This document shows, in pieces, positions 30,348 to 51,704 of a stretch of 64,000 nucleotides of DNA (positions are counted from its first letter, which is position 1; each line of letters begins with the position of its first letter). This DNA comes from Coleofasciculus sp. B1-GNL1-01 (lineage in GTDB: Bacteria; Cyanobacteriota; Cyanobacteriia; Cyanobacteriales; Coleofasciculaceae): NCBI GenBank assembly GCA_040220235.1, contig JAVJTO010000123.1. One strand, written 5' to 3'. Under the pieces are notes generated by a model that was not told the DNA's origin, made no database searches, and saw nothing but the letters and a program-made list of their open reading frames with translations. A program made the position numbers and the translations under genes.

Positions 30348-30753
30348 TTAAATTTCTCCTTATCAAAAATACAGAGTATTAGAAAAACACAAAAATTAGT
30401 GTTTTTGCTTAAACAAATGAATCAAGCTCGTATTTTTTTGTCTAGCTAATATTGCACCTCATTAGCCACTTAATTACTACAATAATTTAGAAAATCTCTA
30501 ACATCATGCTGCTTTGTGTAAACAAAATTGCTTAATTCTGTATTTTGTGTTTCTTTTTAATACAGTTGTCTTTGCAGAAATCTGCAAGACAGAAGACAAA
30601 AAAATAGGGTGACGCGCCAGTCGTGGCATAGTACACCTGATTTGATGAATTAAGCTTATGTCCGAAAACTGTAGGGGTGCAAAGCGTTGCGCCCGATTTA
30701 AGGGTAAAGTCTATTCTGATTAACCCTACCTATCGTTGGCAGTTCTCGATATC

Positions 30754-32493: not shown

Positions 32494-32580
32494 AAAAGCC
32501 TCCTAATAAAAGGCGTCAGCTTCTGTATTCTTGTTTTTCCGTGGAATCGGGCAAAACGGTAACGGCGCGATCGCACTGAA

Positions 32581-32685
32581 CTCTACTATCAGGATAATCC
32601 CGTTAAGTCATTCAATGATAAATAGTTTGTGCCAAAGTACTGGTCTCAATTGGACAAAGTAATCACCCACATGACATCCTGTCTG
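32581..32685 (-). promoter_or_regulatory. Partial copy of the shared upstream element, before tpsB
   Basis: GTTTGTGCCAAAGTACTGGTCTCAATTGGACAAAGT aligns with GTTTGTGCCAAGGTGATGGTAGAAACTGGACAAGT at 51056. Confidence 0.5.
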
Positions 32686-33306
32686 TCTGATGGGAACAAT
32701 TTTGATATGACGGGTGGATAATTGCATCCCCATTCCCTTTTGAGCCGGAAGTAGATGCATTAAACAGCTTTTTTGTCAAATATGCCTCGAAATGAGTCGA
32801 TCAAATTGGGTAATGAAACCTGATTGTAGTATTTTAATTTTTCCGGCGCTAGGGATAATAAAATAACGCATGATCAAGGCGTTTCCGGAATAGTTGGTTA
32901 AAAATGGTTACAAAAATAACCCAATACAGCATAACAATAACGTTATACTACACCCTCAAACCCAAGTCAAATCAGGATTTGCCTGGGGCATTTTCTGCCT
33001 GCCCGAATTCCGCTTATCTTTAGACTATTAAAACCTAAACGTCAAAATTAAAAGTTTTACTTATATAGAGGGGCTTCGTCACCATGAAGCTAAGTTAAAA
33101 AGGAAGACAGCGCCCCAACAAACTAAATTATCAGAGTTGGTGGGGTGGTGCGATCGCGCGAGGATGCGAGAGCTTTTGTTGCACGGGAGAAGGGGAAGCA
33201 GATTTTCTTGCTCCCCTCTTGCTCCCCTCTTGCTCCCCTCTCCCAAGCTTGGGAGAGGGGCTGGGGGTGAGGGCTGGCGTGGGTGAGGGGTTCACCTTAA
33301 GTTGAC

Positions 33307-33392
33307 GGGCGCACGTCGGTGGGGATTGGGCGCACGTCGGTGGGGATTGGGCGCACGTCGGTGGGGATTGGGCGCACGTCGGTGCGCCCCTA
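33307..33392. repeat. 21-bp tandem repeat GGGCGCACGTCGGTGGGGATT (x3 plus a partial unit ending in a REP-like palindrome)
   Basis: Directly visible. The same GGGCGCACGTCGGT core recurs at ~46200, ~57079-57120 and, reversed, at ~56815. Confidence 0.9.
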
Positions 33393-33424
33393 CGTGGATA
33401 AACGGCAAAAATCTGTTGCCAATA

Positions 33425-36400: not shown

Positions 36401-38077
36401 ATTGCCTTCAATAGAGAAAGAGTAGGAGAAAACCCATGAGTCATCGCCAAACGTGATATCGTTACCTGCACTCAAGCGAATCTCTCCCCCATTTCCGGTA
36501 TCACCCCCACCCGAGTAGGAACCAGAAACTATCTCTTGGGAAACAATATTCCCCTGTGCCATCAGAATAATTGCTCCCCCATTAGCGGCATTCTGATTAA
36601 AATTGGGTTCAGGCTCAATAAAACCAAATTCATCTTTAACAACAGCACCGGATGCGGACAAGAGTTCTGTACTAAAAATATCCCCCCGACTATCAATCGT
36701 AATCGCGCCCCCATCCCCGCTTCTATTCATCGTATCAATCCGGCTAACTCGAATATCCCCCGCTAAATTCGACTGATACTGATTGGTTAAAAATACCACT
36801 CCCCCAGGATTCGTCACATTACCATCAATCCTTATATCTCCCCTCATCCCCATCCCCCCTGTACCGGGAACCATGGGCGAAAAACCAGCCGTTTCCCCTG
36901 TCACCCCCACTGTATCAAAAGCAGTTGTCCCCGCCCGAATATCCAGGGTTGGCTGTTTTGAACCATCAATCTCTATACGTGTCTCATCCGATAAAATCAC
37001 CGTCTCCTGAATCGAATTATCAGAAGTATCTGTCCCCGTAATCTCCACATCCCCCGTAATCCTGACACTCCCCCCCGCTAAAATATGCAGAGAAGCTCCT
37101 TGATAACTATCAAAACTTACATCCCCACTGGCACGAATAATGGGATCTCCAGGACTAAATAAACGCCCCAAATTCCCATTCAACTGTTCAATCCGAAAAC
37201 TTCCCCCACTCCAATACTGAGCATCCCCGCCCACATCAGCCGCACTTCGCAGCACCATATCCCCACCGGAAAACAACCCCGAATCGGGATGATTCAAGGC
37301 AAAAATATCAATCCCTTGATTTCCCGTTACCAGCAGATTTCCCCCAGCATCGGCGATAAACGGATTGGTCTGACTATCCCGAATCGTTACTGTATCCTGT
37401 GCTTGTAGGGTTAAATCTCTCCCCGAACCTAACTGTCCCTGTAAATCCAAATTCTCCCCATCTAAGGTCAGATTTCGTCCCGTGGTTAAATTCCCCCGAT
37501 TCGTAATCTTACCCCCCGCCGCTTCTACCGCATTATAAAATAGCGCCCCAGGACTTACTGAGAGTAAACGACTACTCTTCGGTTGAGTCGCACTAAAAAC
37601 CCCATCCTCCCCTAACTCTATCCCTGATGCTGTGGTGGCGACAAAAGACCCTTCTATATCTAAACTGGCATTTTCCCCAAATAAAATCCCATTGGGATTG
37701 AGTAAAAATAGATTCGCTTCACCCAATACCCCTAACCTGCCCAATATAGTCGAGACATTATCCCCAGTAACACGGGAGAGGATATTTTCTATCCCATCAG
37801 GATTGGCAAAATAAACCCCTCTGCCTTCGGCAATATTAAACTCTAAGAAACTATGAAACAGATTCGCGCCGCGAGTGGCGCCCCCATCAATTCTGTCGCT
37901 GAGTATCTCTCGTATTACATCAGGGGTAACCACAGAACTTTCCGCCCCCAGGGTATCATCCGGTATCACCTGGGCGACGACTCCCTCATTTCCCCCAGTT
38001 GAGAACATCCCCACCAACACCACACTACCGACAACCAAAGACTGCCAACGGCGAGTGAACCAGTCTAGAGTAATCAT
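33425..38077 (-). CDS. TpsA filamentous haemagglutinin-like exoprotein 1
   Basis: Signal peptide, TPS domain (NLFHSF, NLFLLNPNGILFG), many G(N/D)GGxIxI beta-helix repeats, C-terminal SC…FFITGTGGIP. Start 38077 has an AGGAG RBS. Confidence 0.92.
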   Translation of the reverse strand: MITLDWFTRRWQSLVVGSVVLVGMFSTGGNEGVVAQVIPDDTLGAESSVVTPDVIREILSDRIDGGATRGANLFHSFLEFNIAEGRGVYFANPDGIENILSRVTGDNVSTILGRLGVLGEANLFLLNPNGILFGENASLDIEGSFVATTASGIELGEDGVFSATQPKSSRLLSVSPGALFYNAVEAAGGKITNRGNLTTGRNLTLDGENLDLQGQLGSGRDLTLQAQDTVTIRDSQTNPFIADAGGNLLVTGNQGIDIFALNHPDSGLFSGGDMVLRSAADVGGDAQYWSGGSFRIEQLNGNLGRLFSPGDPIIRASGDVSFDSYQGASLHILAGGSVRITGDVEITGTDTSDNSIQETVILSDETRIEIDGSKQPTLDIRAGTTAFDTVGVTGETAGFSPMVPGTGGMGMRGDIRIDGNVTNPGGVVFLTNQYQSNLAGDIRVSRIDTMNRSGDGGAITIDSRGDIFSTELLSASGAVVKDEFGFIEPEPNFNQNAANGGAIILMAQGNIVSQEIVSGSYSGGGDTGNGGEIRLSAGNDITFGDDSWVFSYSFSIEGNTGDGGDISFIGGDISFGDDSWVISASASFDGNAGDGGDISFIGGDISFGDNSWVDSSSFSFGDGNAGDGGDGGDISFIGGDISFGDRSWVYSGSSYRSGNGNGGDISFIGGDISFGDHSGVDSSSSSFGDGNAGDGGDISLGGGDISFGDDSLVDSSSSSDSGNGNGGKISLSGGDISFGDDSRVNSYSYSREGDAGNGGEISLIARDGDIIGTSANLLLASFALSEAGEAGNGGNVTLKAGNAITNLEILTLSSSNQAGTVEITGFGDLSVTNTRILTSRRVEVDVPFSSVSTILDVGGEGQSGDVTVTSSGNLTFNNSSIESDTNGSDNAGEVKITSPGRVTFNNSQIISNTSNSGDAGDIFINAGNGITFQGLYSYQDTPQRGGLFAETIPEENSDTQTPPETFGNAGNITLTTPELTLENGAQIATTTESSGKAGNITLQSHPTQENLTINLAPETSISASTNSPFTQATGGDIQIKAPDAITIQGEGRITTETRGTGNAGTITLDTSTLTIAQGAEIFAFTEGSGDSGTITVNATTAVNLGLGVDDFSPVLSVETSNTGKAGNIIVNTPSLTLSDTARITATATQDAMNPEGGGSITLNASTMNLAGIVGVFADTQGQTPAGTLTLKPYENQSTLDITLAPQSRISASTSGSGRGGNLEVSAPEAITIRGQGTLAVETTGEGAAGNLTIDTKNLTIADGATISASTASPNSSGLGGNLTINATESFTLNQAQLSAQSTGVAKAGNITINTGQLTATNGTIATSTEQSAGGAITITAADIHLFEDSDITSRVASGAGGGGNITLTADSIIALNDSDILAFAQDGKGGDITLTTPAFFGQNYKPAPKGTDPRTLDHNDRVDINATGAVEGVITITSDTGFIENSFIQLSGNGIDTDELIAESCIARRHEPQRGSFFITGTGGIPFRPGDAYVTRYQMGTVRSIPREGDGEDSSSSTRRPWKIGDPIIEPTGIYRLPNGELIMSRECDQ

Positions 38078-38890
38078 AGTAAACGTCTCCTGAGCGAGTA
38101 AGGGGATTGTTATCAACTTCAGCCGAGGGAAAATTAAGCTGTTCGGCATTTAAACCTTAATGTCAATCATGACGAAATCCTTGCCGTAGTGCGTTTAGCG
38201 AAGCCATGCCGCAGGCTTTAGCGAAGCCATGCCGCAGGCTTTGCATCTTGCTCGCTACATTGAGCATCTTGCTCGCTACTAATACCCAATTTAAATGCAT
38301 GACAGCTTAGGTATCGGATACTACCAAATAACCCCAAAACCAACAGTGGGCAAACCAGCAAGGTTGAGTTGACACAAATTAAGGGAACCAAGCCCTGTTG
38401 ATATAGATTTTTATACTATAAACCGAATTATCCCATAGTTTGACAAAAAAAGTAGCTACGAATAAAATCCACCTCAATAACCCAATTTTCCCACACCAAT
38501 ACCCACAGGTATAAAATAACAACACCACTCAACTTAAGCCACAACCCCCTCACCCCCAGCCCCTCTCCCGACCCCCCTCGTTCCCCCCTACAAGAGGGGG
38601 GATGACAGAGGATGCTTCGCTTTTTTTGCACGGGAGAGGGGAGCAAGAGGGGAACCATGTTGCTTTCCTTTGCGTGATACCAAAAACGTCTTTATTTAAC
38701 TAACTTTCACAGTATGTGGCGTAACGAAGGGAGGTAAGTTTTGAGTGGGAGAGTGGGAGATTGTGTAGGGGCGGGTTTCACGACTATCTTGTCGGTTTCA
38801 TCCAGATGTGACTAAACCCGCCCCGACCCAGGTTTCTAGACTTCCCTTAACAGTTCCCCTTCTCCCATAAAACAAAAGCGAAGCATCCTT

Positions 38891-39613
38891 TCACGTCAAT
38901 CCTGCTTGATTCAACTGCTCATATAACCACGCCTCAAACAATTCATTCAGCAACCGCTGGCGCATCGCTTCATTCAACTGTGCTGGAATCAACTTCTCTA
39001 ATCGGACAACAGTATACCCATCTCTTGCCGGTTGAGGCGACCAAACTTGACCCGATTGACTACTGCGAAGTAATCCCGCTAAATTAGGACTCAGACTACC
39101 CAACTCAACCGGACCAATCAATCCCCCCCATTTCGCCTCTGACCCTTGAGAAAATTCACGAGCCAATTCAGCAAAGATTTGTTCCCCTTTCTTCAGACTC
39201 AAATAAAGTTGAAACGCCACCGCAAACTCTCTCGTCCTTAAACAGGAATAAACCACTCGATCTAACTCTCGTTTCCGCTGACGGAAATAATACTCCAATT
39301 GATGTCCCCAAGTGGCTTGTTTAAACATTTCCAATCGAATCCGCTGCTTGAACACCGCTTCTAATTCAGTCTGACCCATCCCACAACGCTTTAACCACGC
39401 TTGGAATTCATCTTCCCCCTTCAAATTATTGCGTTGACAGAATAACTGACAAGCCTTACGGACATCCTCATCCGTACAATCAAAGGGCGCGATCGCCTGA
39501 TTAATCAAACTCTCCCGTAACCCTGGCGGAATCAGCGATGCACGAACAACCATAGGCGTAACTTTTTTATCCGTACTGCGGCGGTTTGGGTGGTGTAAAA
39601 AGGTGGTCATCAT
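38891..39613 (-). CDS. PpiC/parvulin-type peptidyl-prolyl isomerase-like protein
   Basis: LDRVVYSCLR…FAELAREFSQGSEAKWGGLIGPVEL…VVRLEKLIPAQL. This type is commonly found beside cyanobacterial type I exporters. Confidence 0.85.
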   Translation of the reverse strand: MMTTFLHHPNRRSTDKKVTPMVVRASLIPPGLRESLINQAIAPFDCTDEDVRKACQLFCQRNNLKGEDEFQAWLKRCGMGQTELEAVFKQRIRLEMFKQATWGHQLEYYFRQRKRELDRVVYSCLRTREFAVAFQLYLSLKKGEQIFAELAREFSQGSEAKWGGLIGPVELGSLSPNLAGLLRSSQSGQVWSPQPARDGYTVVRLEKLIPAQLNEAMRQRLLNELFEAWLYEQLNQAGLT

Positions 39614-39655
39614 CTTGCTTAAACCCTAAAAAAACAGGTAAAATTAACAAAGTAT

Positions 39656-39829
39656 TTAACGAATCAGAATCATCAAGGCTGAATTCAAAGACTGTCCTAG
39701 ATTCCCGTTTCGCCCAAACACAAATTCACTGTAATCAGCTAAATTATCAAGTCCTAAAAGGTTGAGAATAATTTCCGTGACTAGCCAGAGTGTGGTAGTA
39801 AAAACGAGCTTCTTCCAATGAATGTGCAT
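39656..39829 (-). CDS. Small membrane protein (57 aa)
   Basis: MHIHWKKLVFTTTLWLVTEIILNLLGLDNLADYSEFVF. GAGGAG RBS before ATG 39829. Confidence 0.75.
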   Translation of the reverse strand: MHIHWKKLVFTTTLWLVTEIILNLLGLDNLADYSEFVFGRNGNLGQSLNSALMILIR

Positions 39830-39884
39830 GGCTTTTGTCTCCTCAACTCCCTGGCTTCCTGCGTTTCCGGCTTTCAACAGCGTT

Positions 39885-39984
39885 CATTACTTAACACAAT
39901 AAAAAAAAGAGCTGGATTAGACACCCCCCTCTTCTGCCAACTTCCTGACACAATTGTGTTAACCGACTTGCCGAAAACTGCAAT
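39885..39984 (-). promoter_or_regulatory. Shared upstream element, 22-bp-shorter variant
   Basis: CATTACTTAACACAATA at offset 0, TGCCAA at offset 50 (as in the full copies), TGCCGAAAACTGCAA at offset 84 instead of 106. Confidence 0.7.
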
Positions 39985-40132
39985 AGCCATGGCTAAATCC
40001 TGTAATTACTGGTTCTCAACCTGGCATTCAACCTGGTAGAAAACCTTAATCCCTTACCTCAACGAGTTGTTTATTGTAATTATCAAATGAATCCTAATAA
40101 TTTAAACCCAACTCAACCATTCAGCCAAATAT

Positions 40133-40438
40133 ATGATGCAATTTAAACCCACTACTCCCTCAACCCTACGACCCAGCACCGTAGTACTCAGACCCAGTGG
40201 TTGTCTAGATAGTTCTCGCAGTCCCGCGTTTAGGAAGTCTCTAGAACAAGCCTTAGAATTAGCAACGGATACCGTGATTGTAGATTTACTATCCGTCAAC
40301 GTAATTAAAGCCGAAGGAATTCGCAGCCTAATTGCAGGGATGAAACAAGCCGCTGCATTGGGAAAAACCCTATCTTTAGAATTTGTGGACGCCGTGACGC
40401 GGATGATTTTAGAAGAACAATTGCAGAATTTAAGCTGA
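40133..40438 (+). CDS. STAS domain protein (anti-sigma-factor antagonist-like)
   Basis: VVLRPSGCLDS…FRKSLEQAL…VIVDLLSVNVI…GIRSLIAG…GKTLSL. Confidence 0.8.
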   Translation: MMQFKPTTPSTLRPSTVVLRPSGCLDSSRSPAFRKSLEQALELATDTVIVDLLSVNVIKAEGIRSLIAGMKQAAALGKTLSLEFVDAVTRMILEEQLQNLS

Positions 40439-40442
40439 TAAG

Positions 40443-40605
40443 TGTCATTCGTCATTGGTCATTCGTCATTCGTCATTCGTCATTTGTTAGGGAATGGGGA
40501 ATGGGGAATAGGGAATGGGAAAAAGGTAGAGTTTTGAGTTAACTTCCCTATCTCCCCCAGCTCCCCCTACTCCCCCTACTCCCCCAGCTCCCCCCATCTC
40601 CCCAC
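40443..40605. repeat. Mixed GTCATTC / GGGAATG heptamer and CTCCCCCAG-type nonamer repeats
   Basis: Directly visible between convergent genes. Confidence 0.85.
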
Positions 40606-40610
40606 CAGCC

Positions 40611-43307
40611 CTAAACCATTTGCCGAACCATCAACTGAGCAAATAACCCCTCCACCGCCGCCAACTCCTCAAACGTTCCCTGTTGCACGATCCGCCCCCC
40701 TTCAATAACATAGATACGGTGAGCATGGCGAATCGTGCTGAGTCGATGGGCAATCACTAGCCGAGTCACCTGTAACTGATCCAAACTTGCACTGACAATC
40801 CCTTGAGTGCGATTATCTAACGCACTGGTCGCCTCATCAAAGAGTAAAATTCGCGGTTTCAAGACCAACGCCCTGGCTATCAATAACCGTTGCTGTTGTC
40901 CCCCCGACAAATTCCCGCCCCCCTCACTAATTACCGTATGCATTTCCATCGGCATTGCTGCAATATCATCCGCTAACCCCGCCATCCGCGCCGCGTCCCA
41001 GGCTTCATCCAACGTAATTTGAACCCCACTGGCAATGTTCTCAAAAATGCTCCCGGACAAAATCCGACCATTTTGCAGCACCACACCCAACTGTCGGCGC
41101 ACGGCGTTAATATCTAGCCCCGATAAGGCTTGACCATCATAATCAATCGTTCCCGACTCCGGGGTTTCAAATCCCAGCAATAATCGAAACAGCGTCGATT
41201 TCCCACTCCCAGAACGCCCGACAATGGCAATAAATTCCCCAGGTTCGGCATGAATACTCAAATTATCCAGGATCAGGGGAGCATCATCCCGGTAGCGGAA
41301 GCTCACCTGATTCACCCTAATTCTACCCATCAGTTTACCAGGATCTGCCTTGCTTAAACTCACCTCAGGTCTCGTCTCGACAATCGGCTGGAGACGTTGC
41401 CATTGGGGAATCACTTGCAAAACGTCCAGCGTTGTGTTACTTAAATCCGTAACCCCTTTAATAAACGTGCCAAATGCAGTGTTGAACGCCAAAAACGTGC
41501 CAATGGAGAGTCCCACATTCCCTGGGGTTTCCGCCGCCTCCAGCCGTTGCATCGTCAACCCAAACAGTAATCCCGATGCTAGGGTAGGCATGACCGTATT
41601 GAACAGCGTCACACTATCCTTAATCTGCTGCGTACTCAGATTCAGCTTCACTTGGCGACTATAGTTGTTACTCCACGTCGCAAACGCCCGCCCTTGGGCA
41701 CCGGCGATGCGGAGTTTTGCCATACCGTTAATCAACTGCACCGTCTGTCCGAAAATTGTCCCCTGCAGGGTTAGCAGTCGATAGGTTTTACCCACCAGCA
41801 AGGAACTCGCGATGAGAGTCAAGGCAATTGCTACCACCGCCACGACAACCGCCACCCAAGCCAATGGTACACTATAGTAAAATAACAGCGCCAAATTCAG
41901 CAATGCCAACCCAGCGCCAATAAAATGAATCACCGTCGTACCACCGAGTTGGCGGCGGATTTGACTAATGGAGGCGACACGAGACTGTAAGTTCCCCGCA
42001 CTGTAGCGGCGGAAAAAATAGACCGGTAAATTCAGCAATCGCTCCCAGACAGCCGCTTGGGTAGAGGTATCAGCCACCGTTTCCACTCGCAGCAGCGCCA
42101 ACCCTTGAGCAAACAGAAACAACGCCATTCCCATCGCCGCCACCAACAGTCCCGCCCCAACTTGCCATAATAAAGTGCGATCGCTATTCGGAATCGCCTG
42201 ATCCATTAAAATAGCCGTAGCTTGAGGCGTCAGCATACCCAACACCGTTGCGGCTATACCGGTGCCAAGAACCATGGGCAAGTCCTGAACCCGCCCCTTT
42301 ATGCTAAACTGCAAGACATCCCACGCCGTCAGCACCTTATCCGGCAGCGTCCGATAAAACATCCAGGCAAAAGCCGTCAAGGTTGAGGCATTCCGGGCAG
42401 TTACCGCTGTACGAGTCCCCAGCACGGGGTCAAAGATATCATAGCCCGTGGCTTTCCTGGGCAACAGCACAACAAGCTGATTATCACACTGTCTGTAGGC
42501 AACTAAAGCCCCACAATCCTTTTTCCACCAATCCTCTCGCAACAACACCCGCCGCATCTGAATCCGAGAGGCTCGCATAATCGCCTCCAACGGTTCCCTC
42601 AGCCGCTGGACATCTTCCGATTGACTCCCAGGGCGGATGGGGACACCCAACGCTTTTCCCACTGCACCCGCCGCCACTAACAAGGGTGAAGGGTTCAGGG
42701 AATCGGAGGTGGCTGGGGTTGCCAAGGTTGATGCCAATTCCCCGATGGCTTGGGCATTTACCTGACGATTCAGACATTCCTCGGCTTCCAGGCGTTGCTG
42801 GTGTTCGCGGTACTCGCGTTCTTCCTGGCGCTGAATCTGGTCAAATAACTGACCATGAACCTGGGATAACGTTTCCACCAGCGCATCAGGTTTAGACGTA
42901 ATTTCGGCAACTCCCTGACATCGGCTCTCGGTTTCGCGATCGCAGTATACCGTATAAACCTGTTGAAGCCAACCCGCTATCCAGTTCCTGACGTTATCAT
43001 CCCCCGTGGTAATTAACTGGCGAAACCATGTCCCGTCCAATTTTAGCAGCTCGGTCTCCCCAATCGGTACAACCAACAACTGGCGAAAAGACCCAGAAGC
43101 GGTGCCAAAAAGTGCCGCGCCAGAGTCACAACTAAATAGATAACGCCGAATTCCTTCTATCACACCTTGGTTTACCTTAACGGCAAATAGGGCAACAGAA
43201 CCCGACTGCACCAGCCAAACCGTCTGCGGGTCATCTAATAAGAATGGCTGATTTCCGTTAATTTTGTAAACTTGTCCCGGTAATTCTCGAATGGTTGGTG
43301 AAATCAT
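40611..43307 (-). CDS. NHLP-type bacteriocin export ABC transporter, permease/ATPase subunit (no peptidase Cys)
   Basis: N-terminal cNMP-like segment, R(R)VLLREDWWKKDCGALVAY, ABC TM domain, GRSGSGKST, LSGGQQQR, FDEATSALD. Confidence 0.92.
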   Translation of the reverse strand: MISPTIRELPGQVYKINGNQPFLLDDPQTVWLVQSGSVALFAVKVNQGVIEGIRRYLFSCDSGAALFGTASGSFRQLLVVPIGETELLKLDGTWFRQLITTGDDNVRNWIAGWLQQVYTVYCDRETESRCQGVAEITSKPDALVETLSQVHGQLFDQIQRQEEREYREHQQRLEAEECLNRQVNAQAIGELASTLATPATSDSLNPSPLLVAAGAVGKALGVPIRPGSQSEDVQRLREPLEAIMRASRIQMRRVLLREDWWKKDCGALVAYRQCDNQLVVLLPRKATGYDIFDPVLGTRTAVTARNASTLTAFAWMFYRTLPDKVLTAWDVLQFSIKGRVQDLPMVLGTGIAATVLGMLTPQATAILMDQAIPNSDRTLLWQVGAGLLVAAMGMALFLFAQGLALLRVETVADTSTQAAVWERLLNLPVYFFRRYSAGNLQSRVASISQIRRQLGGTTVIHFIGAGLALLNLALLFYYSVPLAWVAVVVAVVAIALTLIASSLLVGKTYRLLTLQGTIFGQTVQLINGMAKLRIAGAQGRAFATWSNNYSRQVKLNLSTQQIKDSVTLFNTVMPTLASGLLFGLTMQRLEAAETPGNVGLSIGTFLAFNTAFGTFIKGVTDLSNTTLDVLQVIPQWQRLQPIVETRPEVSLSKADPGKLMGRIRVNQVSFRYRDDAPLILDNLSIHAEPGEFIAIVGRSGSGKSTLFRLLLGFETPESGTIDYDGQALSGLDINAVRRQLGVVLQNGRILSGSIFENIASGVQITLDEAWDAARMAGLADDIAAMPMEMHTVISEGGGNLSGGQQQRLLIARALVLKPRILLFDEATSALDNRTQGIVSASLDQLQVTRLVIAHRLSTIRHAHRIYVIEGGRIVQQGTFEELAAVEGLFAQLMVRQMV

Positions 43308-43473
43308 GGGTTTTGAAGTAAATTGATTTTAAAGTTAACGGTTGAATAAATTCAAGTCATAAACTCGGCAAAAGGGGCGGGTTTAGTCGCATTTAGTTGC
43401 AACCAAAAAGATAGTTGTGAAACCCGCCCCTACAGATACATCCTGCCCAAAAAGCGTTGCGAAGGAACCCTTT

Positions 43474-43576
43474 ACAAATGACCAATGACAAATGACCAAT
43501 GACAAATGACCAATGACAAATGACCAATGACAAATGACCAATGACAAATGACCAATGACAAATGACCAATGACCAA
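43474..43576. repeat. ACAAATG-ACCAATG 14-mer tandem array (~7 copies)
   Basis: Directly visible. Confidence 0.95.
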
Positions 43577-43577
43577 C

Positions 43578-45788
43578 TTATTGATTTTGAATCAAGGTTG
43601 AATACACACCCTCCACCTGCCACAAATCTTGATGAGTCCCTTGTTGCACAACCTTTCCCCGTTCCAAAACAATAATTTGATCACAATCTCGAATCGTACT
43701 TAATCGGTGTGCCACAATCAAACAAGTACAGCCACGCCGCCGCAGATTCTCGTCAATCATCCGTTCCGTTTCAGCATCCAAAGCACTCGTCGCTTCATCC
43801 ATAATCAAAATAGAGGGATTATTCACCAACGCTCTAGCAATTTCCAACCGCTGCCGTTGACCGCCACTTAAATTAGCCGCATTTGCGATCAATTGAGCAT
43901 CATATCCTCCAGGTAGCGAGACAATCACATCATCAATAACCGCATCCTGACAAGCGCGAACAAGATTTGTTTCCGGGATTGTGGGATTCCAGAGGGTCAA
44001 ATTATCCCGAACCGTGCCACCAAATAACTGAATCGTCTGCTCAACCATTGCTACAGAATGAGTGAGAACTTGATCCGGTATTTCAGTTCTAAGTTGACCA
44101 TCAAAATAAATATCTCCTGACCAGGGTTGATACAGTCCACTGATCAGTTTAGCCAGAGTAGATTTTCCCGAACCACTACTACCCACCAAAGCAATGCGCT
44201 GTCCCGGTAAAACCTTGAGACTAAAGTTTTCAATCAGGGGGGGATCAACTCGGCTGTAGCCAAACGTAATCGCCTGTAACTCAACATAACCTTGTAACTT
44301 GGGATATTGACTCTTGAACTTAGCAGGTTTTGGCGCAACCTGGGGGTCAATTGGGTTACACAAAACATCATCAAGGCGAATTAAATTCCCCTCCAGTTCC
44401 TGAAGCATACTAGCAAAACTGACTAAATTATTCACAGGCAACAAAAAGCTCTGCATTAACCCTTGAAATGCCACCAGCATCCCTATACTCAGATATCCAT
44501 CCATCACCCGCCACCCGCCAACCACTAATAAAACTAGGGACGAAAGCGCTGATAAAACGGTGGGTAATACCGAGAAAATCTGATTAGTAACATCCAATTC
44601 CTGCTGAGAATTAATCGCTTTCGTATAGTACCCCGCCCAACGAGAAAATACATCGGACTCTAAACCCGAAGCTTTAACCGTCTCAATACTTTGAAGCGCC
44701 GCAATAGACGCCCCCGCTGCCTTACCATGCTCTTGAATTAAGCGTTGATTCGCATCTTTGCGTTTCCGGGAGACGGACTGTAAGATAAAAACATTCACCG
44801 CCGCAAAACCAACAACAATTCCCGTCATAATTGGGTCATACTGTACCATGACTAGCCCATAAAAAATCACCATCACGGCATCAATTACCGTCGTCGTCAA
44901 CCGTCCCGACAGCACCTCCGCCACTTGGTCATTGAGACGACTACGATAAGTAATTTCTCCAGCAAATCGTTGGGCATAAAAATCAACCGGTAAGCGCAGG
45001 ATATGCCAGAGAAAGCGACTGGACATTCCCACAGACAGTTTCACCTTCAGGCGGCGCAAATACCGCAAGCGTAGCTGAGTCAACAGTCCTTGCAGAATCG
45101 CTGTAATTCCTACACCAATAAGTAACGGACGCAGCCATTGTTGGCGTCCCTGAATCAAGATTTCATCAACAAAGATTTGGCTAAAGACGGGAATTGCCAT
45201 GCCCACGAGGGTCAATAAAAATCCTGCCACTATGCAGTACATTAAAGCGCCCACTGTACCTTGTAGCCGTTCCCACAAGGCGAGAATTGTGCTAAATTTG
45301 CGCCCCCCTTTGACAAAATCAGAATTGGGTGTCATCACCAGGACGATACCTGTATAACTGGCATCAAATTCCGAGAAAGACACCGTTCGTGGACCTGTAC
45401 CCGGGTCATTTACGTAAACCTGTCGCTTACCAATTCCTTCTACAACTAAAAAGTGATTGAAATTCCAAAAAATAATATAAGGCGGGCGCAAATCTGGAAG
45501 GTCTTGGATTTCCTGTTTATAGCCTTGGGCGTCGAGTCCATAGAGTCTAGCCGCTTTAAGAATATTCGCCGCTTTACTACCATCGCGAGACACACCACAG
45601 GTTTGCCGCAATTCAGGTAGGGGGACGATGCGACCATAGTAACTTAAAATAATACCCAAAGCAGCCGCACCACATTCCCCGGCTTCCATTTGCAAAAGTG
45701 TGGGCGTTTTTACCCGCCTATGGCGACGTTTTAGCCGTTTTTTAAGGGATTGAAAAGGGGTAATGAATGTCACGAATACAGTCGTCAT
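43578..45788 (-). CDS. NHLP-type export ABC transporter with C39 peptidase (double-glycine leader peptidase)
   Basis: TPTLLQMEAGECGAA (Cys), FWNFNHFLVV (His), VNDP (Asp), CGVSRDGS, GSSGSGKST, LSGGQRQR. Start is ATG 45788 or GTG 45818. Confidence 0.95.
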   Translation of the reverse strand: MTTVFVTFITPFQSLKKRLKRRHRRVKTPTLLQMEAGECGAAALGIILSYYGRIVPLPELRQTCGVSRDGSKAANILKAARLYGLDAQGYKQEIQDLPDLRPPYIIFWNFNHFLVVEGIGKRQVYVNDPGTGPRTVSFSEFDASYTGIVLVMTPNSDFVKGGRKFSTILALWERLQGTVGALMYCIVAGFLLTLVGMAIPVFSQIFVDEILIQGRQQWLRPLLIGVGITAILQGLLTQLRLRYLRRLKVKLSVGMSSRFLWHILRLPVDFYAQRFAGEITYRSRLNDQVAEVLSGRLTTTVIDAVMVIFYGLVMVQYDPIMTGIVVGFAAVNVFILQSVSRKRKDANQRLIQEHGKAAGASIAALQSIETVKASGLESDVFSRWAGYYTKAINSQQELDVTNQIFSVLPTVLSALSSLVLLVVGGWRVMDGYLSIGMLVAFQGLMQSFLLPVNNLVSFASMLQELEGNLIRLDDVLCNPIDPQVAPKPAKFKSQYPKLQGYVELQAITFGYSRVDPPLIENFSLKVLPGQRIALVGSSGSGKSTLAKLISGLYQPWSGDIYFDGQLRTEIPDQVLTHSVAMVEQTIQLFGGTVRDNLTLWNPTIPETNLVRACQDAVIDDVIVSLPGGYDAQLIANAANLSGGQRQRLEIARALVNNPSILIMDEATSALDAETERMIDENLRRRGCTCLIVAHRLSTIRDCDQIIVLERGKVVQQGTHQDLWQVEGVYSTLIQNQ

Positions 45789-45863
45789 GATTCCAATTTT
45801 ATAGGCTACCAGTCTCACCCTGGGTTATCGAATCGGTTGCCAGATGGATAACTCATCACTGGG

Positions 45864-45985
45864 CTTTAATTAAAACAATAAGCCAATAAATTTTTCGATG
45901 CAGTCCCAGTTTCTGCCAAGGTTATGGTAAGAAGGGGACAGATTAATTACACAATCCGGTGATTGCCCTTACCGAAAACTGCCAC
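45864..45985 (-). promoter_or_regulatory. Shared 122-bp upstream element, before the C39 transporter
   Basis: CTTTAATTAA…GATGCA…GTTTCTGCCAAGGTTATGGTAAGAA…GACA…CCCTTACCGAAAACTGC aligns without gaps to 51011 and 56499. Confidence 0.8.
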
Positions 45986-46213
45986 CCTCGTTTACGTCGG
46001 GATTATGTCACCTTTGTCATGGTGTGGCACAGTAACAGTAAGATTCCCATCAGGGCGGGTTTTGTTGAGAGGTTATCGGTCAATATCAACATTAAATGGC
46101 TAAACCCGCCCCTACAATTGACCTCATACCCTCATCCCCTCTTATCCCCCTACTGGCTTGATACAGCTAAGATTGTGGAATAGATTTCACCATTGAATCG
46201 GGCGCACGTCGGT

Positions 46214-46465
46214 CATTGGTGTCAACTTAAGGTTAACCCCTCACCCCCAGCCCCTCTCCCACGCCGGGGAGAGGGGAGCAAGAGCATCCGATCCCCCTTC
46301 TCCCGTGCAACAAAAGCGAAGCATCTGCTGTCCTCCCCCCTCTTGTAGGGGGGAACGAGGGGGGTGGAGAAGGGGTTAGGGGATGAGGGGGAAATGTTGA
46401 GGAATAGATAGACACGGTGTAAAACCTTGCCAGCATTGGTTTTCGACCTTAAGTTGACACGGATG
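46214..46465. mobile_element. MITE with 19-bp imperfect TIRs and a 9-bp target duplication
   Basis: CATTGGTGTCAACTTAAGG … CCTTAAGTTGACACGGATG, flanked on both sides by CACGTCGGT (46205-46213 and 46466-46474). Related internal sequence at ~33170-33306 and ~38528-38650. Confidence 0.8.
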
Positions 46466-46540
46466 CACGTCGGTGCTAACCTACGGTTTCGGGGCTAATG
46501 GTTAATTCATCAAATAAGGTGTGCCACACCATTACTCTCT

Positions 46541-47986
46541 TTAATAAATGCCACTACTCGACCTAAGAATCGGTAGAATAAACGTAATTGGCGCTCGTTC
46601 TTCTATCGTCACGCGAACGGTGGTGGTGGTTCCCGAAGAGATGTTGAGTTCAGGTCCTTTAGAAGATGACCATTTGTAACCACTAAATGTTGTAGAATCA
46701 GGATGGAGGTCAGCGACAACTTGCATCAGTCCTGCTGGCTGATTGGATACCAAATCGGCGACGATTTCTGGATTACCGACAACCTTCGCGGCGGCGGCTT
46801 GGGTGATGGGAAAGGTGGAAATATCTTTAACGGTACCGACGATACCGCCAAAGCGTTCCCGCTTCACGGTTTGGGGTGTGATTTGTAGCGTCATACCGGG
46901 TTTAATTTTTTTGCCGTCGCCAACGGAGAAATAGGTAATTCCCACCATTTCGCTGTCGGGATGTGCCGCGTCTAGGGTTGCCAAACGGGTTCCAGGGTTG
47001 ACCACTTGTCCAGGATTAACCGCGAGTTCGACAATGCGTCCGCTGTGGGGGCTGATAATTTGGCTATTCTCATTTAATTGTACTTCCAGTTGGGCAATGT
47101 CGCGCTGAACCGCTTGAATTTCTTTCTGGCGCAGGGTGACGGCTTCTAAGTCTTCTTGGGCGAGATTGGCTTGGCGACTCTCGAGGGCTTGGAGTTGCGA
47201 TCGCAAGTTAGTAATAGTACTTAGGTTATCACGATAGGCTTTTTCTTGCTCGGTTGCTGTAACATCGAGTTCTGTTAACTGGGTTTGGAGTTTAGAGATG
47301 GTATCCTGGTTCTCTTGAACTTGCACTTGAGCATCCAGCAGAACATCATGAGTAATCACTCGTTCGGCAAAAAGTTGCTGACGGATGTCTAATCTCTGTT
47401 GATAAATAGGAGTCATCCCCTGAACTTGCTGTAAGCTTTGTTGCAGGCTTTGGCGTTGTTGTTTCAGAGATTCATTACTGGTAGTTTTAAGTAATGGGGT
47501 TAAGGATTGGAGTTCCTGAATCCGTTGCTGGAGGTATTGGCGTTGCTGTTGAATCGAGTGTTTTTCCTGTTCAATTCGCAGGGCTTGCAGTGAACTAACG
47601 GCTTGGTTTTGGGACTGGAGTTGGGCGAGTTTAGTTCGTTGCTGTTGGAGTTGTTTTTGGAGTTCAGTTTGGTTAATAGTTCCCAGAATTTGACCTTTTT
47701 TAACGGTATCTCCTACTTCGACAGTTAAATCGGATAATTGCCCGGAATTTTTGGATTGAAGTGGGACAACGTTGCTAGGGTAAACCAAGACACCGCGCCC
47801 TTCAATCGTGATGGGAATGCGTCCGTAAATACTCCAGAATCCCGCAGCGGCGACTAAAGAGGTTAAGGAGAGTAAAGGAAGCCAACTTTTGGGGTTGACG
47901 ACTTCCATAAGTTGGTCTAGCCGTTCGGGAGAGGATAAACGTTCTAGAGATTTTTCTCGAAATAGAGTTTGTTTTTGAGTTAGCAT
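46541..47986 (-). CDS. NHLP-system HlyD-family secretion protein
   Basis: LFREKSLERLSSPERLDQL, one TM helix, long coiled coil, KRERFGGIVG, YKWSSSKGP, APITFILP. Confidence 0.93.
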   Translation of the reverse strand: MLTQKQTLFREKSLERLSSPERLDQLMEVVNPKSWLPLLSLTSLVAAAGFWSIYGRIPITIEGRGVLVYPSNVVPLQSKNSGQLSDLTVEVGDTVKKGQILGTINQTELQKQLQQQRTKLAQLQSQNQAVSSLQALRIEQEKHSIQQQRQYLQQRIQELQSLTPLLKTTSNESLKQQRQSLQQSLQQVQGMTPIYQQRLDIRQQLFAERVITHDVLLDAQVQVQENQDTISKLQTQLTELDVTATEQEKAYRDNLSTITNLRSQLQALESRQANLAQEDLEAVTLRQKEIQAVQRDIAQLEVQLNENSQIISPHSGRIVELAVNPGQVVNPGTRLATLDAAHPDSEMVGITYFSVGDGKKIKPGMTLQITPQTVKRERFGGIVGTVKDISTFPITQAAAAKVVGNPEIVADLVSNQPAGLMQVVADLHPDSTTFSGYKWSSSKGPELNISSGTTTTVRVTIEERAPITFILPILRSSSGIY

Positions 47987-48110
47987 GATTGATTCAGAAG
48001 CATCCCCCGATTTGACGTCGGGGGAGTGTTAATTACAATCTGGTTAGTGTCAGGACTAAGCTGTTATGCATTTAGTTTTTTGACCCGAAAATCTTGAAGG
48101 AGTCTGGGCT

Positions 48111-48347
48111 TCAGAACAGCGTATAAGGGTATTTACTGAACTGCGGTTTTGCAATATACCATCCACCAGATACGGTTTCCAACTGTTCATCGGATAGTTC
48201 TTCCGCCCCAAGGCTAGCCGTCAAATTTTGGGTAGATTTCATGGCTTGGACTTCATCTAAGTTTTTTCCTCCCGTTGTTAATGACAACGATTGTGGCTGA
48301 GTTTTAGATTCAGACATCTTGGCAAAAAATGGATTGATGTTAGGCAT
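48111..48347 (-). CDS. Double-glycine leader peptide precursor 1 (core WYIAKPQFSKYPYTLF)
   Basis: EELSDEQLETVSGG cleavage motif. GGAG RBS. Adjacent to the exporter genes. Confidence 0.9.
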   Translation of the reverse strand: MPNINPFFAKMSESKTQPQSLSLTTGGKNLDEVQAMKSTQNLTASLGAEELSDEQLETVSGGWYIAKPQFSKYPYTLF

Positions 48348-48544
48348 TTGATTTTCTCCGTTATTTTTGCGGGTTATGAGGACTCTTTTATTACAAAAAA
48401 TAGAACAGTCTATTTTTTGGTGTCCTACTCCATTAATACTAATCGCAATCTATTCTAATTGAGTAGTACTATTTTTTGGTAAAATAGGATATTTATTTGA
48501 ATAAATATATTGATTTAAAAAATAAATTACACAAAATAAAAGCC

Positions 48545-48650
48545 GATCATTTTCTGGAACTGCCGACTTCCCTAACTTGGCTTATTTTTCAGAAAATTAT
48601 AAACGCTCTAGCAATTTTTTTTGAAATAGCGTGTGTTTTTGAGTCAGCAT
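48545..48650 (-). pseudogene. Degenerate duplicate of the hlyD 5' end
   Basis: Translates MLTQKHTLFQKKLLERL* versus HlyD MLTQKQTLFREKSLERL. About 70 bp upstream is also duplicated. Confidence 0.8.
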
Positions 48651-48831
48651 GATTGATTCAGAAGAATCCCCCGATTTGAGGTCGGGGGAGTGTTAATTAC
48701 AATCTAGTTAGGGTCAGGATTATGCATTAAGCTATAGTCCATTGTTAGCGGCTCATAACGTATCATTACCTTACCGTTATAGATTGCGTAGATACGTTAA
48801 TTGTGTTCGTTTAAATTTGGCTAAATTTCGG

Positions 48832-49050
48832 TTACCAAAAGGCAATCCAATAAGGATAAGATGAACCACCAGCTATAGTTTTCAACTGTTCATCAGATAG
48901 TTCTTCCGCCCCAAGGCTAGCTGTCAAATTTTGGGTAGATTTCATGGCTTGGATTTCATCTAAGCTTTTTCCTCCCATTGTTAATGACAACGACTGTTGC
49001 TGAGTTTGAGATTCAGACATCTTGGCAGAAAATGGATTGATGTTAGACAT
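48832..49050 (-). CDS. Double-glycine leader peptide precursor 2 (core SSYPYWIAFW)
   Basis: Leader nearly identical to precursor 1. EELSDEQLKTIAGG. Confidence 0.9.
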   Translation of the reverse strand: MSNINPFSAKMSESQTQQQSLSLTMGGKSLDEIQAMKSTQNLTASLGAEELSDEQLKTIAGGSSYPYWIAFW

Positions 49051-49327
49051 TTACTTTTCTCCGTTGTTTTTTTGGTTTATAAGGACTCTTGTATTACAAA
49101 AGATAGACTGTTCTATCTATTGGCGTCCTACTACATTAATACTAATCGTAATCTAGTCTGATTGAGTAGTATTGTTTTTCGGTGAAATAGGATGTTTTTT
49201 AGGGTTGAAATTTTCAACAAATGTGAATAACTAGAAAAAGAGGGTATAAACTACCCTCTGCTTTTGCAAAAATTCAGTCGCTTTTAAAGCGATTAAGCTG
49301 TATACCAATTAAAATGTCATAACAGCT

Positions 49328-49486
49328 TCACTTGTACCACCAGAAAAATAGACCCCCGGCAACAGTCTCCAATTGTTGGTCGGATAACTCTTTTGCTTTT
49401 TCCTCTTGGATAGGTCGGGCAAAGACTGTTGTTTTGGAGCCCGTAATGGCGACTTTATTGGTCAAAAATTGATTGATGTTAGACAT
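49328..49486 (-). CDS. Double-glycine leader peptide precursor 3 (core LFFWWYK)
   Basis: Starts MSNINQF (like MSNINPF) at ATG 49486 with a GAGG RBS. KELSDQQLETVAGG. Confidence 0.88.
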   Translation of the reverse strand: MSNINQFLTNKVAITGSKTTVFARPIQEEKAKELSDQQLETVAGGLFFWWYK

Positions 49487-49796
49487 GATATTTTTCCTCT
49501 TGTAGTTTGGCATCGAGCATTTGGGAACTTAAAGCTATCTTGGGTTTTGAAAAGATAATCTTTTCATTTTTGCTTTAATTCTGCTCTATTAATAATCTTA
49601 AGGGTTATAAGTACAGGTTTAATAGGACAAAATTTAGCTAATTAATTTAGACAAATACCTGTTATATGTAAGGTTTTGACAAAGTAAAATACCCAACTTT
49701 TTATAGAAGTTAGGCATTTAAGAGTAATGCAGATATAAGTTGATTTTTTAGTATCTCAACAGATCAAGAAATCAAGTTGTTGATTAAAGTCCATGA

Positions 49797-50933
49797 TTAT
49801 TGCTTATTCTTGCGTTTCCGCAGAGTATTTGCTCCCCAAGTACCAAAGATAAGAATCCCCAAAATAGAAGAGGGTTCTGGCACCGAAGCCGTAGGGCGAA
49901 CTTTACCCGCCATCACATCATCGATGAAACTGGCATAAGTGGATACTCGTGTAACACCAGCAAATTCACCGAAACTAGCATTAGCGACTCCTTCAATGAC
50001 AACATCTGTAATTGGATTGTCTGGGAACAGGCGAATGTTAATAATGCCATCTCCATCAGTATCCCAAACGTCAGAAAAACCAAAAGAGGTAATTCCGGCA
50101 ATCAACTTGTTCCCTTCGTCGTCGAGGAGGAATGAGGGTCCTCCTGAATCACCTGGTCCTGGAGTAACTTCGTTGAATCCTAACCCTAAGTCATGGATAC
50201 CAAAGTGGACACCAAAGGCATCATTTTCCGGATTGCCGTTGTCAAAATCAAACAACAACTGGCTTGTAGTATCTTTAGGAAAGAACTCTTCAGGTAGCTG
50301 AGAAGCACCTTGAAAAATATCAATAAATGCATCAAATTGATTCTGTCCAAAGCGTTTCCTGCCATCAAATAATGATTCATCGAATCCTTCAGAGCCAATG
50401 CCAGTATTGCCATATCCTACTATTGTAAAAATCTGACTAATTTCATCTGACCCTCGATAAATATCATATTGTTCAATACTTGTGGGAGCTGGTTTTGCCA
50501 GCTTTAATATAGCAATGTCACCTTCTACAGAGAATGTATTAAAATCTGGAAACACAAAAAAATCAGTAACGGCGATTTCCTCAAACATTGCATTTGTATT
50601 GGGTAAAATCGCAAAATCTGAAGAAAAAATTGGCTCGTTATCAAGATTAAAAATTGCTGTCGTACTTCCCACTGTATCTGGATAAAATTCTCCATCTTGG
50701 TTTATGAGACAATGGGCAGCTGTGAGCAGGTGTAACCCTCCAGGTAGAAGTGAACTACTACAATAAAATTTTCCAGCTTCTGTTAGAGCGGCAACGCCAC
50801 TAAAATCGAAAGGATCAACCAAAGCATTAACTGACTCATCCGGAGTAACAATGGCTTTGGCGACTTCTCCTGTGCCTAGGGTGACGAATGCTGTTCCCAG
50901 TACAGCGATTGATGCTTGCTTGAGAATTGACAT
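49797..50933 (-). CDS. Secreted S1 (trypsin-fold) serine protease with PEP-CTERM sorting signal
   Basis: Signal peptide ending …EVAKA. LTAAHC, GDIAIL, GDSGGP triad. VPEPSSILGILIFG…RKRK tail. Confidence 0.92.
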   Translation of the reverse strand: MSILKQASIAVLGTAFVTLGTGEVAKAIVTPDESVNALVDPFDFSGVAALTEAGKFYCSSSLLPGGLHLLTAAHCLINQDGEFYPDTVGSTTAIFNLDNEPIFSSDFAILPNTNAMFEEIAVTDFFVFPDFNTFSVEGDIAILKLAKPAPTSIEQYDIYRGSDEISQIFTIVGYGNTGIGSEGFDESLFDGRKRFGQNQFDAFIDIFQGASQLPEEFFPKDTTSQLLFDFDNGNPENDAFGVHFGIHDLGLGFNEVTPGPGDSGGPSFLLDDEGNKLIAGITSFGFSDVWDTDGDGIINIRLFPDNPITDVVIEGVANASFGEFAGVTRVSTYASFIDDVMAGKVRPTASVPEPSSILGILIFGTWGANTLRKRKNKQ

Positions 50934-51010
50934 TGATTCTTTATCTCCAAAACGACAATTTCCTGTTGTTCCTATCCTTGAGCGGTAATCTATCCGGGTG
51001 AAAACCTGTT

Positions 51011-51132
51011 CTTTAATTAATACGATAAGGAAACTAACTTAAGGATGCATTCCCTGTTTGTGCCAAGGTGATGGTAGAAACTGGACAAGTCAATGGCATA
51101 ATACTGTCACCACCGTTGCCGAAAACTGCAAA
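51011..51132 (-). promoter_or_regulatory. Shared 122-bp upstream element, before the protease
   Basis: CTTTAATTAATACGATA…GATGCATTC…TGCCAAGGTGATGGTA…CTGTCACC…TTGCCGAAAACTGCAAA. Confidence 0.85.
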
Positions 51133-51250
51133 CCCTACACTTGAGGAGAGCAATCAGGATTTTCTGCATCTGAACTGTGGCACTATTGATTGGGTTTCGG
51201 CGCGTCAACTCAACCTACGATTTCACGCAAGTTAGTTAAACTGTTATCAA

Positions 51251-51466
51251 TTAAAGGGTTTGGGAACGTAATTCCAATTGGAACAGTTCGCGAGATTCTT
51301 GTCGTACATCTCCTTCCATTGCGGCTTGTTGCAACTTCATGAAGGCATTGAGTTCGTCTGGTTCATAAGTTTTGCTTTGTAAACGCTGCCGCAGTTGTTC
51401 TTCAGCGGCTAAGGTTAGATAACCAATTGTCAATGCCTTTTGAACTAAATCACGAATCGATAGCAT
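51251..51466 (-). CDS. Small conserved cyanobacterial hypothetical protein
   Basis: MLSIRDLVQKALTIGYLTLAAEEQLRQ…AAMEGDVRQESRE. Paralog at 13436. AGGTGG RBS. Confidence 0.8.
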   Translation of the reverse strand: MLSIRDLVQKALTIGYLTLAAEEQLRQRLQSKTYEPDELNAFMKLQQAAMEGDVRQESRELFQLELRSQTL

Positions 51467-51704
51467 ATTACCACCTAAACCTGAAATGAGCAGATGCTGG
51501 ATTTTAGAAACAATTTTTATGTTATGTCCACTTGATTTATACTCTACAAAAACAAAAAAATGATGTACTTGTATTTTCGGTAAACTCTATGACTGAAATC
51601 AGATTATTCAGTTACATAAAGTGATAACTAGCTTGGCAGAAAAGTATAAGTAGCGACCAAGATGGTCGCACGACAAGGGTGTCGCAATTATTGACAATCC
51701 GGTT

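Follow-up and report, generated by a model that had tools for sequence, protein, structure and literature searches.

A six-gene cassette of Coleofasciculus predicted to export short, aromatic, strain-variable double-glycine peptides

What is exported when a peptide transporter stands beside genes whose predicted products are only a few, largely aromatic residues long? The question is raised by a locus in Coleofasciculus sp. B1-GNL1-01 (assembly GCA_040220235.1, here G000), in a 64,000-nucleotide stretch of contig JAVJTO010000123.1 that was analysed as a whole and is called the window below. Judged by comparison with related genomes, the locus is a six-gene cassette, accessory in Coleofasciculus, made up of two or three precursor genes, hlyD, a C39 peptidase-ABC transporter gene and a second ABC transporter gene. 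The reading that we tentatively prefer, at somewhat less than an even chance, is that it exports an unmodified, strain-variable mix of peptides acting as antagonists of neighbouring cells.

The original prediction had placed three double-glycine (GG) precursors before the exporter, and their open reading frames (ORFs) are confirmed, all on the minus strand. In order of transcription, precursor 1 (49328-49486; 52 aa) has a 45-aa leader ending in GG and the core LFFWWYK, and belongs to a short-leader subtype whose relatives are P0040-P0044; precursor 2 (48832-49050; 72 aa) has a 62-aa leader and the core SSYPYWIAFW; and precursor 3 (48111-48347; 78 aa), directly followed by hlyD, has a 62-aa leader and the core WYIAKPQFSKYPYTLF. 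The predicted monoisotopic masses of the unmodified cores are 1088.55, 1318.60 and 2051.06 Da, respectively. A recount agrees with the core lengths (7, 10 and 16 residues), aromatic contents (5/7, 5/10 and 6/16), lack of Cys and occurrence of YPY in two cores first reported. Each of the three starts has a GGAG/GAGG element 5' of it, and alternative starts (49513 and an internal Met36), being without such a Shine-Dalgarno-type element, were rejected. Of the four matches to the GG-leader pattern in the 8.66 Mb genome, three lie at this locus; 6.4 Mb of triplet-shuffled window gives none. F, W and Y account for 16 of the 33 core residues, against 8.1% in the long ORFs of the genome (binomial P ~1e-9) and 11.8% (P ~2e-7) for random codons drawn at the composition of local intergenic DNA. 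The precursor set is more than chance.

Searching with the leader, which the original prediction had suggested as a way of gathering relatives, yielded 33 proteins with 26 distinct cores. The collection draws on three word-index searches, on a complete profile search against 1.84 billion representatives and on clusters looked up for 10 proteins; all 33 proteins have the whole leader except one, which has its last 27 residues, and 24 weak matches to the GG helix only (P0022-P0034, P0047-P0057) were left out. The cores are 6-19 residues long (0.79-2.54 kDa), examples being WGILWIAYH, IFARVW, WIFSRYGPYPFW, IFHLLRYF and WAAIPRHRLNRLPSWL. Their 320 residues comprise 106 F/W/Y (33%), 31 W, no Cys, 5 D/E and 42 K/R; random local codons would give 0.7% W, against the observed 9.7%. 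A hydrophobic residue stands first in 25 of the 26 cores and an aromatic residue lies within the last three in all of them; aromatics occupy 60/104 terminal positions versus 46/216 inner ones, and K/R/H 5/104 terminal versus 47/216 inner ones. Net charge is never negative (26/26), Ser, Thr and Cys are all absent from nine cores, and by the Wimley-White scale 18 of the 24 cores tested rank, for membrane-interface partitioning, among the top 5% of proteome windows. Among the motifs tried, none occurs in more than nine of the 26 cores, and there is no common spacing or enzyme motif: W-x-R/K/N/W occurs in five, and YPY, noted at first in two of the three cores, in only four, making it no family motif. 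The one alignable pair of cores differs by 7.5 replacement versus 1.5 silent changes. The precursor is predicted to be disordered (pLDDT 55), and an Atlas search with precursor 3 gave a top feature score of 0.87, under the 0.9 bar, and structure hits that are meaningless (pLDDT 0.36). As a separate observation, protein P0001 has the core of precursor 3 behind the leader of precursor 2, by recombination between paralogues or as an assembly chimera.

Every record that names an organism is from Coleofasciculus. Full matches occur in 2/52 genomes of the taxonomic family (G000 and G005), and in 2/9 of the genus; L001 and G005:C321 are one stretch and were counted once, and weak matches in G015 were rejected as Nif11-type precursors beside a LanM fragment. 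No relative was found among 252 pattern matches in viral contigs, and a metagenome scan gave at least one true relative (L056) among 13 loci listed. In a phylum sample the source genome stood alone among 401, with 14 candidates scored per genome. The peptide family looks undescribed and has been seen so far only in Coleofasciculus records.

The proteins that the precursors were said to precede are indeed those of a complete export trio, all three exceeding their TIGR cut-offs on the minus strand. The hlyD-type membrane fusion protein (46541-47986) scores 454 bits with TIGR03794 (cut-off 156) and is the sole over-cut-off copy among those listed for the genome, the same model being exceeded in 18/41 related genomes. 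The C39 peptidase-ABC transporter (43578-45818) scores 1160 bits with TIGR03796 (cut-off 853), its Gln43, Cys49, His122 and Asp138 motifs being intact, and the second ABC transporter (40611-43307) scores 989 bits with TIGR03797 (cut-off 709) and has no C39 match. The dN/dS ratios are ~0.09 for HlyD and ~0.14 for the C39-ABC, and a TolC-like gene lies elsewhere in the genome, at G000:C84. We fetched 20 other trio loci and placed 13 of these trios in a C39-ABC tree, of which only path distances were used; a seven-row clade of a quick tree was unsupported in the careful one. The four nearest by path are L037, L038, L039 and L036. L037 and L038 each have a short-leader GG peptide beside hlyD and no enzyme among the ORFs scanned in the fetched DNA, L039 has Nif11 precursors and LanM, and L036 has a GG peptide beside hlyD with YcaO ~10 kb away. 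The core at L037, the nearest trio, has a sub-cut-off match to Bacteriocin_IIc.

A trio without an enzyme had been regarded as unusual, a view that does not stand against L037, L038 and the literature. Wang, Fewer and Sivonen (2011; PMC3140520) assign trios without LanM to group V and those with LanM to group IV, and many precursors in their survey are neither NHLP nor N11P; in Haft et al. (2010; PMC2887384) precursors and leaders track the transporter rather than any enzyme. The cassette shares with group V a short C39-ABC, a peptidase-less ABC, HlyD, arrayed GG precursors and the lack of LanM. It differs in having no twin CAP_ED/cNMP-binding gene (TIGR03896), which is described for group V and present at 10 of the 20 other trio loci, the relative in the genome being a 186-aa single-module protein on C124. 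The cores here are aromatic and 6-19 aa long, those of group V Gly/Cys/Ser/Thr-rich, and the leader family here is distinct; its motif was not found in the supplements of the 2011 survey, whose precursor table as searched has no sequence column. With the NHLP/Nif11 (N11P) peptides made on the ribosome and modified after translation (RiPPs; PMC2887384) the cassette shares the trio, an acidic GG helix, a hypervariable core after GG and paralogous precursors, but it has no nitrile-hydratase-like or Nif11 domain, no Cys and no linked YcaO, LanM or radical-SAM gene. The transporter is of a known, ordinary type, and the distinctive part is the cargo.

Three side observations concern the trios fetched. 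A ~390-aa DUF7005 (PF22541) protein with HExxH adjoins 9/20 of these NHLP-type trios (L036, L039, L040, L041, L045, L048-L051) and is possibly an unrecognised peptidase or maturase of NHLP-type systems. Upstream of the trio at L040 (10545-10760) is a GG precursor with a 33-residue His-rich core, possibly a metal-binding exported peptide, and at L055 (2583-3614) a 343-aa protein without Pfam or NCBIfam match, upstream of two NHLP precursors and a trio, is a candidate tailoring enzyme.

That the leaders are neither NHLP nor Nif11 was borne out by profile searches. The best scores are 17.7 bits with NHLP model TIGR03793 (cut-off 50.9; profile positions 50-77 only) and 13.2 bits with Nif11 model TIGR03798 (cut-off 32.3), PF07862 giving no match. 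Other models to which the leaders were compared were missed as well: 16.8-23.6 bits against 32 for the CTB family bacteriocin model NF038167, of whose 72 positions only the GG helix aligned, 17.4 and 20.7 bits against 33 for XyeA (TIGR04495), and one sub-cut-off match to the EntF model. All matches are confined to the last ~15 residues, the generic GG helix. The bacteriocin signal TIGR01847 (cut-off 15.7) gives 15.8 bits for precursor 3 and 14.1 and 13.6 for the other two; NCBI names some relatives 'bacteriocin', and the precomputed Pfam accession PF28158 matches two family members along with many unrelated GG-helix proteins. Positions -12, -7 and -4 before GG are Leu, Leu and Val or Ile in 33/33 family proteins, which, as the GG-site pattern itself demands these residues, means that every family member passed it. 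Hydrophobic residues at -4, -7 and -12 are those by which substrates of peptidase-containing ABC transporters (PCATs) are recognised, the LahT protease binding leader residues at these positions (PMC6363468). Pooled pN/pS (10 pairs of five genes) is 0.32 in leader codons 48-62 and 0.75 in codons 1-47; the GG helix thus appears to be under purifying selection, and the part of the leader that an enzyme would bind to be weakly constrained. An internal 'TTGG' (leader positions 23-26) was rejected as a second cut site, being unconserved (TTGE, TTGR and ATER are variants). Among the weak matches left out, P0023, P0029, P0031, P0033, P0034 and P0047-P0055 form a small-protein family of their own, in which the GG-leader helix occurs twice in tandem and a short acidic stretch, similar in both cases, comes after each copy; PF28158 is assigned to many of them.

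From known families we infer where the precursors would be cut and how they would leave the cell. The C39 domain would dock the last helix of the leader (Leu-12, Leu-7, Val/Ile-4) and cut the bond after Gly-Gly, and both ABC proteins, HlyD and the TolC-type channel encoded at C84 would release a linear peptide, 6-19 residues long and unmodified. The cores, with aromatic or hydrophobic ends and a basic middle, would be swapped fast between strains, two or three per strain, and would most likely serve as antagonists of neighbouring organisms in the mat, binding to membrane interfaces or to receptors. It is probable that the cores are unmodified, because there is no Cys in 320 residues, nine cores lack Ser, Thr and Cys, no motif is shared, leader codons 1-47 are weakly constrained and the precursor is disordered. 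To antagonism, the role that we infer, goes a little over half of that probability, because charge is never negative, 18/24 cores rank high for interface partitioning, strains have several cores and the site is held in common with polyketide synthase (PKS) and nonribosomal peptide synthetase (NRPS) blocks. The excess of basic over acidic core residues (42 versus 5) and the Bacteriocin_IIc match of the L037 core also count in its favour.

Several points weigh against this reading. Cores are weakly charged (0 to +2 in most) and their helical moments tend to be small, which is weak for membrane lysis in salt water, and the composition of the cores would agree about equally with pheromones or with peptides that self-assemble. 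The 26 cores include many variants of one another and are thus not independent draws, and the pN/pS and dN/dS values come from small counts and non-independent pairs. Eight metatranscriptome-labelled runs contain 26-33% of sampled words; the four examined consist of contigs only, spanning intergenic and repeat DNA too, so that DNA in the libraries is possible; one of them is deeper in two precursor bins, but genes are not ranked by contig depth, and the runs were not counted as evidence of transcription. A candidate modifying enzyme, considered below, is present in both cassette carriers. Besides the precursors there is no stand-alone same-strand ORF of at least 30 aa in 47987-49796 that could be an immunity gene, with which class II microcins typically occur (PMC10233263, PMC12219008). 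Class IIa microcins of the MccV type (PMC10233263) share with the cassette an unmodified peptide (putative here), a GG signal, a PCAT with fusion protein and TolC, a Gram-negative host and cores without shared sequence, but their signals are 15-18 aa (45-62 here) and their cores 60-90 aa (6-19 here), the immunity gene is adjacent, and the cassette has two ABC genes. On balance we favour antagonism over the signalling and matrix roles.

Second in probability, though unlikely, is that the unmodified cores are strain-specific signals, polymorphic pheromones or kin labels behind a constant leader by which mat filaments would tell self from non-self, with a receptor encoded elsewhere and control over bundling, motility or secondary metabolism. 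Such peptides would need no immunity gene, and each precursor has its own conserved upstream region; that of precursor 3 (48352-48497, minus strand), a putative promoter region, is 84% identical to 49055-49200 upstream of precursor 2, and no further copy exists in the genome. In size and make-up, the cores that have 6-12 residues, aromatic at the ends and little charged, would be akin to the short hydrophobic pheromones of streptococci. Gram-positive GG pheromones (CSP, bacteriocin inducers) are likewise short, cationic-hydrophobic and strain-variable, and are unmodified and cut after GG by a PCAT (both putative here). A linked sensor kinase and response regulator are, however, a feature of GG-processed pheromones, pheromone and receptor being usually linked and so able to co-vary. 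Beside the cassette, in G000 or L001, there is no sensor kinase, response regulator or peptide-binding regulator. The host here is a cyanobacterium, two or three unrelated cores occur per strain, and only 2/9 genus genomes have the cassette. Export of quorum peptides by PCATs is described in Gram-positives (PMC6363468, PMC10986499).

Third, and also unlikely, is modification of the cores before export by an enzyme encoded elsewhere. The original prediction had offered unmodified peptides or substrates of a cross-linking enzyme acting in trans; the former is our best reading, whereas the latter is weakened by the lack of a shared core motif. Its statement that the window holds no tailoring enzyme agrees with genome scans, in which the 3 LanM, 3 YcaO, 11 P450 and 24 radical-SAM matches of G000 all fall on contigs other than that of the cassette. 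Lanthipeptides and thiazole/oxazole-modified microcins need core Cys and Ser/Thr with LanM or YcaO, and neither enzyme could act on the nine cores that lack Ser, Thr and Cys; the LanM genes (C41, C49) each have their own precursors. P450s were rejected, being present in 9/9 genus genomes with no short aromatic precursor beside the 11 G000 matches. Neither a full-length Trp halogenase nor DUF7005 was found in G000, and a LynF/TruF prenyltransferase search of it was empty, its control also matching nothing. Triceptides of the XyeA type compare poorly, with the leader below cut-off, a three-residue aromatic motif in 5/26 cores and a contig that lacks radical-SAM genes.

Foremost among candidates is an orphan gene (G000:C2:30004-31233, or L153:6005-7231; G005:C42; G004:C65) for a SkfB-like radical-SAM/SPASM protein, extended at its N-terminus by ~100 aa, which could cross-link aromatic residues. 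Fifteen of the 24 radical-SAM proteins were scanned against NCBIfam and the remaining nine, judged by eye from N-termini and neighbours, are presumably housekeeping enzymes. TIGR04085 matched none of the G000 proteins searched, and two pass Pfam SPASM, the orphan among them; radical-SAM copies on C49 (G000 only, inside a LanM cluster) and C141 (in 8/9 genus genomes) were rejected. The orphan follows a hydrogenase large-subunit gene in G000 and G005, and in G005 a repeat of the last codons of the hydrogenase gene lies behind it. It occurs in 3/52 genomes of the taxonomic family, namely both cassette carriers and G004, a non-carrier with an 84% identical copy; in G007, closely related but without the cassette (an assembly of 1440 contigs), it was not found. 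No precursor was observed beside it, its best relative among solved structures is SkfB, a peptide maturase (E 1.7e-12; Atlas rank 2), and leaders of 45-62 aa exceed the length needed for export. Yet G004 has neither precursor match nor trio, and G000, G004 and G005 are close kin, with the result that co-occurrence is not independent and is weak evidence. SkfB chemistry needs Cys, which the cores lack, as they lack a common spacing motif; the leader N-terminus is weakly constrained, and PqqD has no match in the extension. The fold predicted for the orphan from a three-row alignment is poor (pLDDT 40.5), its N-terminus is RRE-like as judged by eye alone, and a complex prediction of its residues 1-100 with leader residues 1-62 scored 0.00, 'no answer', which speaks neither for nor against binding. 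A precedent for action in trans is the stand-alone LanM suggested to serve group V clusters in Prochlorococcus (PMC3140520). As a bold second reading, the peptides may represent a new class of RiPP, the aromatic, Cys-free cores being cross-linked by an unlinked radical-SAM enzyme of SkfB type. Apart from this, YcaO is directly preceded in two genomes by a protein that combines a stretch like a GG leader with a Peptidase_S74 chaperone domain (G000:C82:29944-30600, or L113, and L043:13101-13679).

It is doubtful that the cores self-assemble by aromatic stacking into sheath, adhesion or matrix material, in the manner of EbfG in Synechococcus biofilms. EbfG1-4 of Synechococcus elongatus, required for biofilm, are tandem-encoded GG proteins with Tyr/Pro-rich stretches, exported by the C39 transporter PteB and shown by mass spectrometry to be cleaved after GG, and SYPY occurs both in the mature EbfG1 N-terminus and in the core of precursor 2 (PMC4997328). 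The cassette also lies among PEP-CTERM and two-partner-secretion (TPS) adhesin-like genes. Mature EbfG, however, has 6-7 kDa against 0.8-2.5 kDa for the cores and a transporter of other architecture, the only sequence likeness known here is a four-residue coincidence, YPY is confined to 4/26 cores, and many cores are Pro- or Arg/Lys-rich. A structural role is at odds with fast core replacement and with patchy presence, and the PEP-CTERM neighbour is outside the cassette. That the cassette is decaying or silent, with the cores truncated, functionless remnants, would agree with the lack of expression evidence, the weak constraint on most of the leader and the shortness of the cores, but is very improbable given intact HlyD and C39-ABC genes with low dN/dS, a conserved GG helix and 26 distinct cores of strongly non-random make-up, their W content above all.

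The limits of the cassette follow from its relatives, since arrangements around it differ between G004, G005 and G007, which leaves rotamase and protease as flanks and the precursors and trio as the cassette. A PpiC-type rotamase (38891-39613, minus strand) had been counted as part of the system, but a STAS ORF (40133-40438, plus strand), with which it is paired, intervenes on the opposite strand, and the rotamase does not travel with the cassette: in G005 it is ~20 kb away from the second ABC, and G004 has the pair without a trio. The upper 1.1 kb of the range first proposed is a trypsin-like gene with a PEP-CTERM tail (49797-50933, minus strand), unmentioned there; it lies outside the cassette and occurs without it in G007 and G003. 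Neighbours at the locus include STAS, rotamase, trypsin-PEP-CTERM, a 71-aa ORF, HEAT/NACHT and AraC genes. Over the flanking genes G000, G004 and G005 are 90-96% identical in DNA. Between the 71-aa ORF and the STAS-rotamase pair lies a site (window 40400-51500 compared with L086-L092) that holds swapped blocks in these close relatives: the cassette in G000; the cassette with a halogenase-PKS block and NRPS, the latter two between second ABC and STAS-rotamase, in G005; the halogenase-PKS block alone, directly after the trypsin gene, in G007; and another PKS block, behind the 71-aa ORF, in G004. The halogenase beside the second ABC in G005 was rejected as a partner, being part of the PKS/NRPS block, right after the trypsin gene in G007 and not found in G000.

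Within the cassette, 48588-48725 (minus strand) is an 86% duplicate of 47924-48061 that includes a hairpin and a decayed copy of the first hlyD codons; precursors 2 and 3 therefore arose by tandem duplication of a ~700 bp unit. The GC hairpin concerned, between the last precursor and hlyD (48003-48025; copy at 48667-48689), and a terminator-like hairpin after precursor 1 (49239-49259) are pattern matches only, and would favour precursor over transporter message. A promoter scan was uninformative (14 sites against 10.4 expected). Farther off in the window, two ORFs at 17482-18627, which we take to be pieces of a broken transposase, precede a short TPS-domain-like fragment (18738-19361); 19628-38149 encodes a large caspase-like/WD-repeat protein, a caspase-hydrolase protein, a ShlB-type transporter and a TPS protein, and a second TPS gene lies at 57172-63858.

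In the open full-text literature searched, with subscription journals and bioRxiv supplements outside its scope, there is no description of the peptide family, and apart from the generic bacteriocin signal no model or paper found corresponds to it. Double-glycine precursors number in the hundreds in cyanobacterial genomes, and hardly any has a known product or role. The peptides predicted here would be unusually easy to test: 6-19 standard residues, no enzyme needed, exact masses and 26 natural variants of one design. If they inhibit neighbours, they would be far shorter than class II microcin cores (60-90 aa) and would do so without an immunity gene. If the cores are signals or kin labels, they would amount to peptide signalling through a PCAT in a Gram-negative phototroph, evidence of which is described as lacking in PMC10986499, and would open peptide-based kin recognition in mat-forming cyanobacteria to study.

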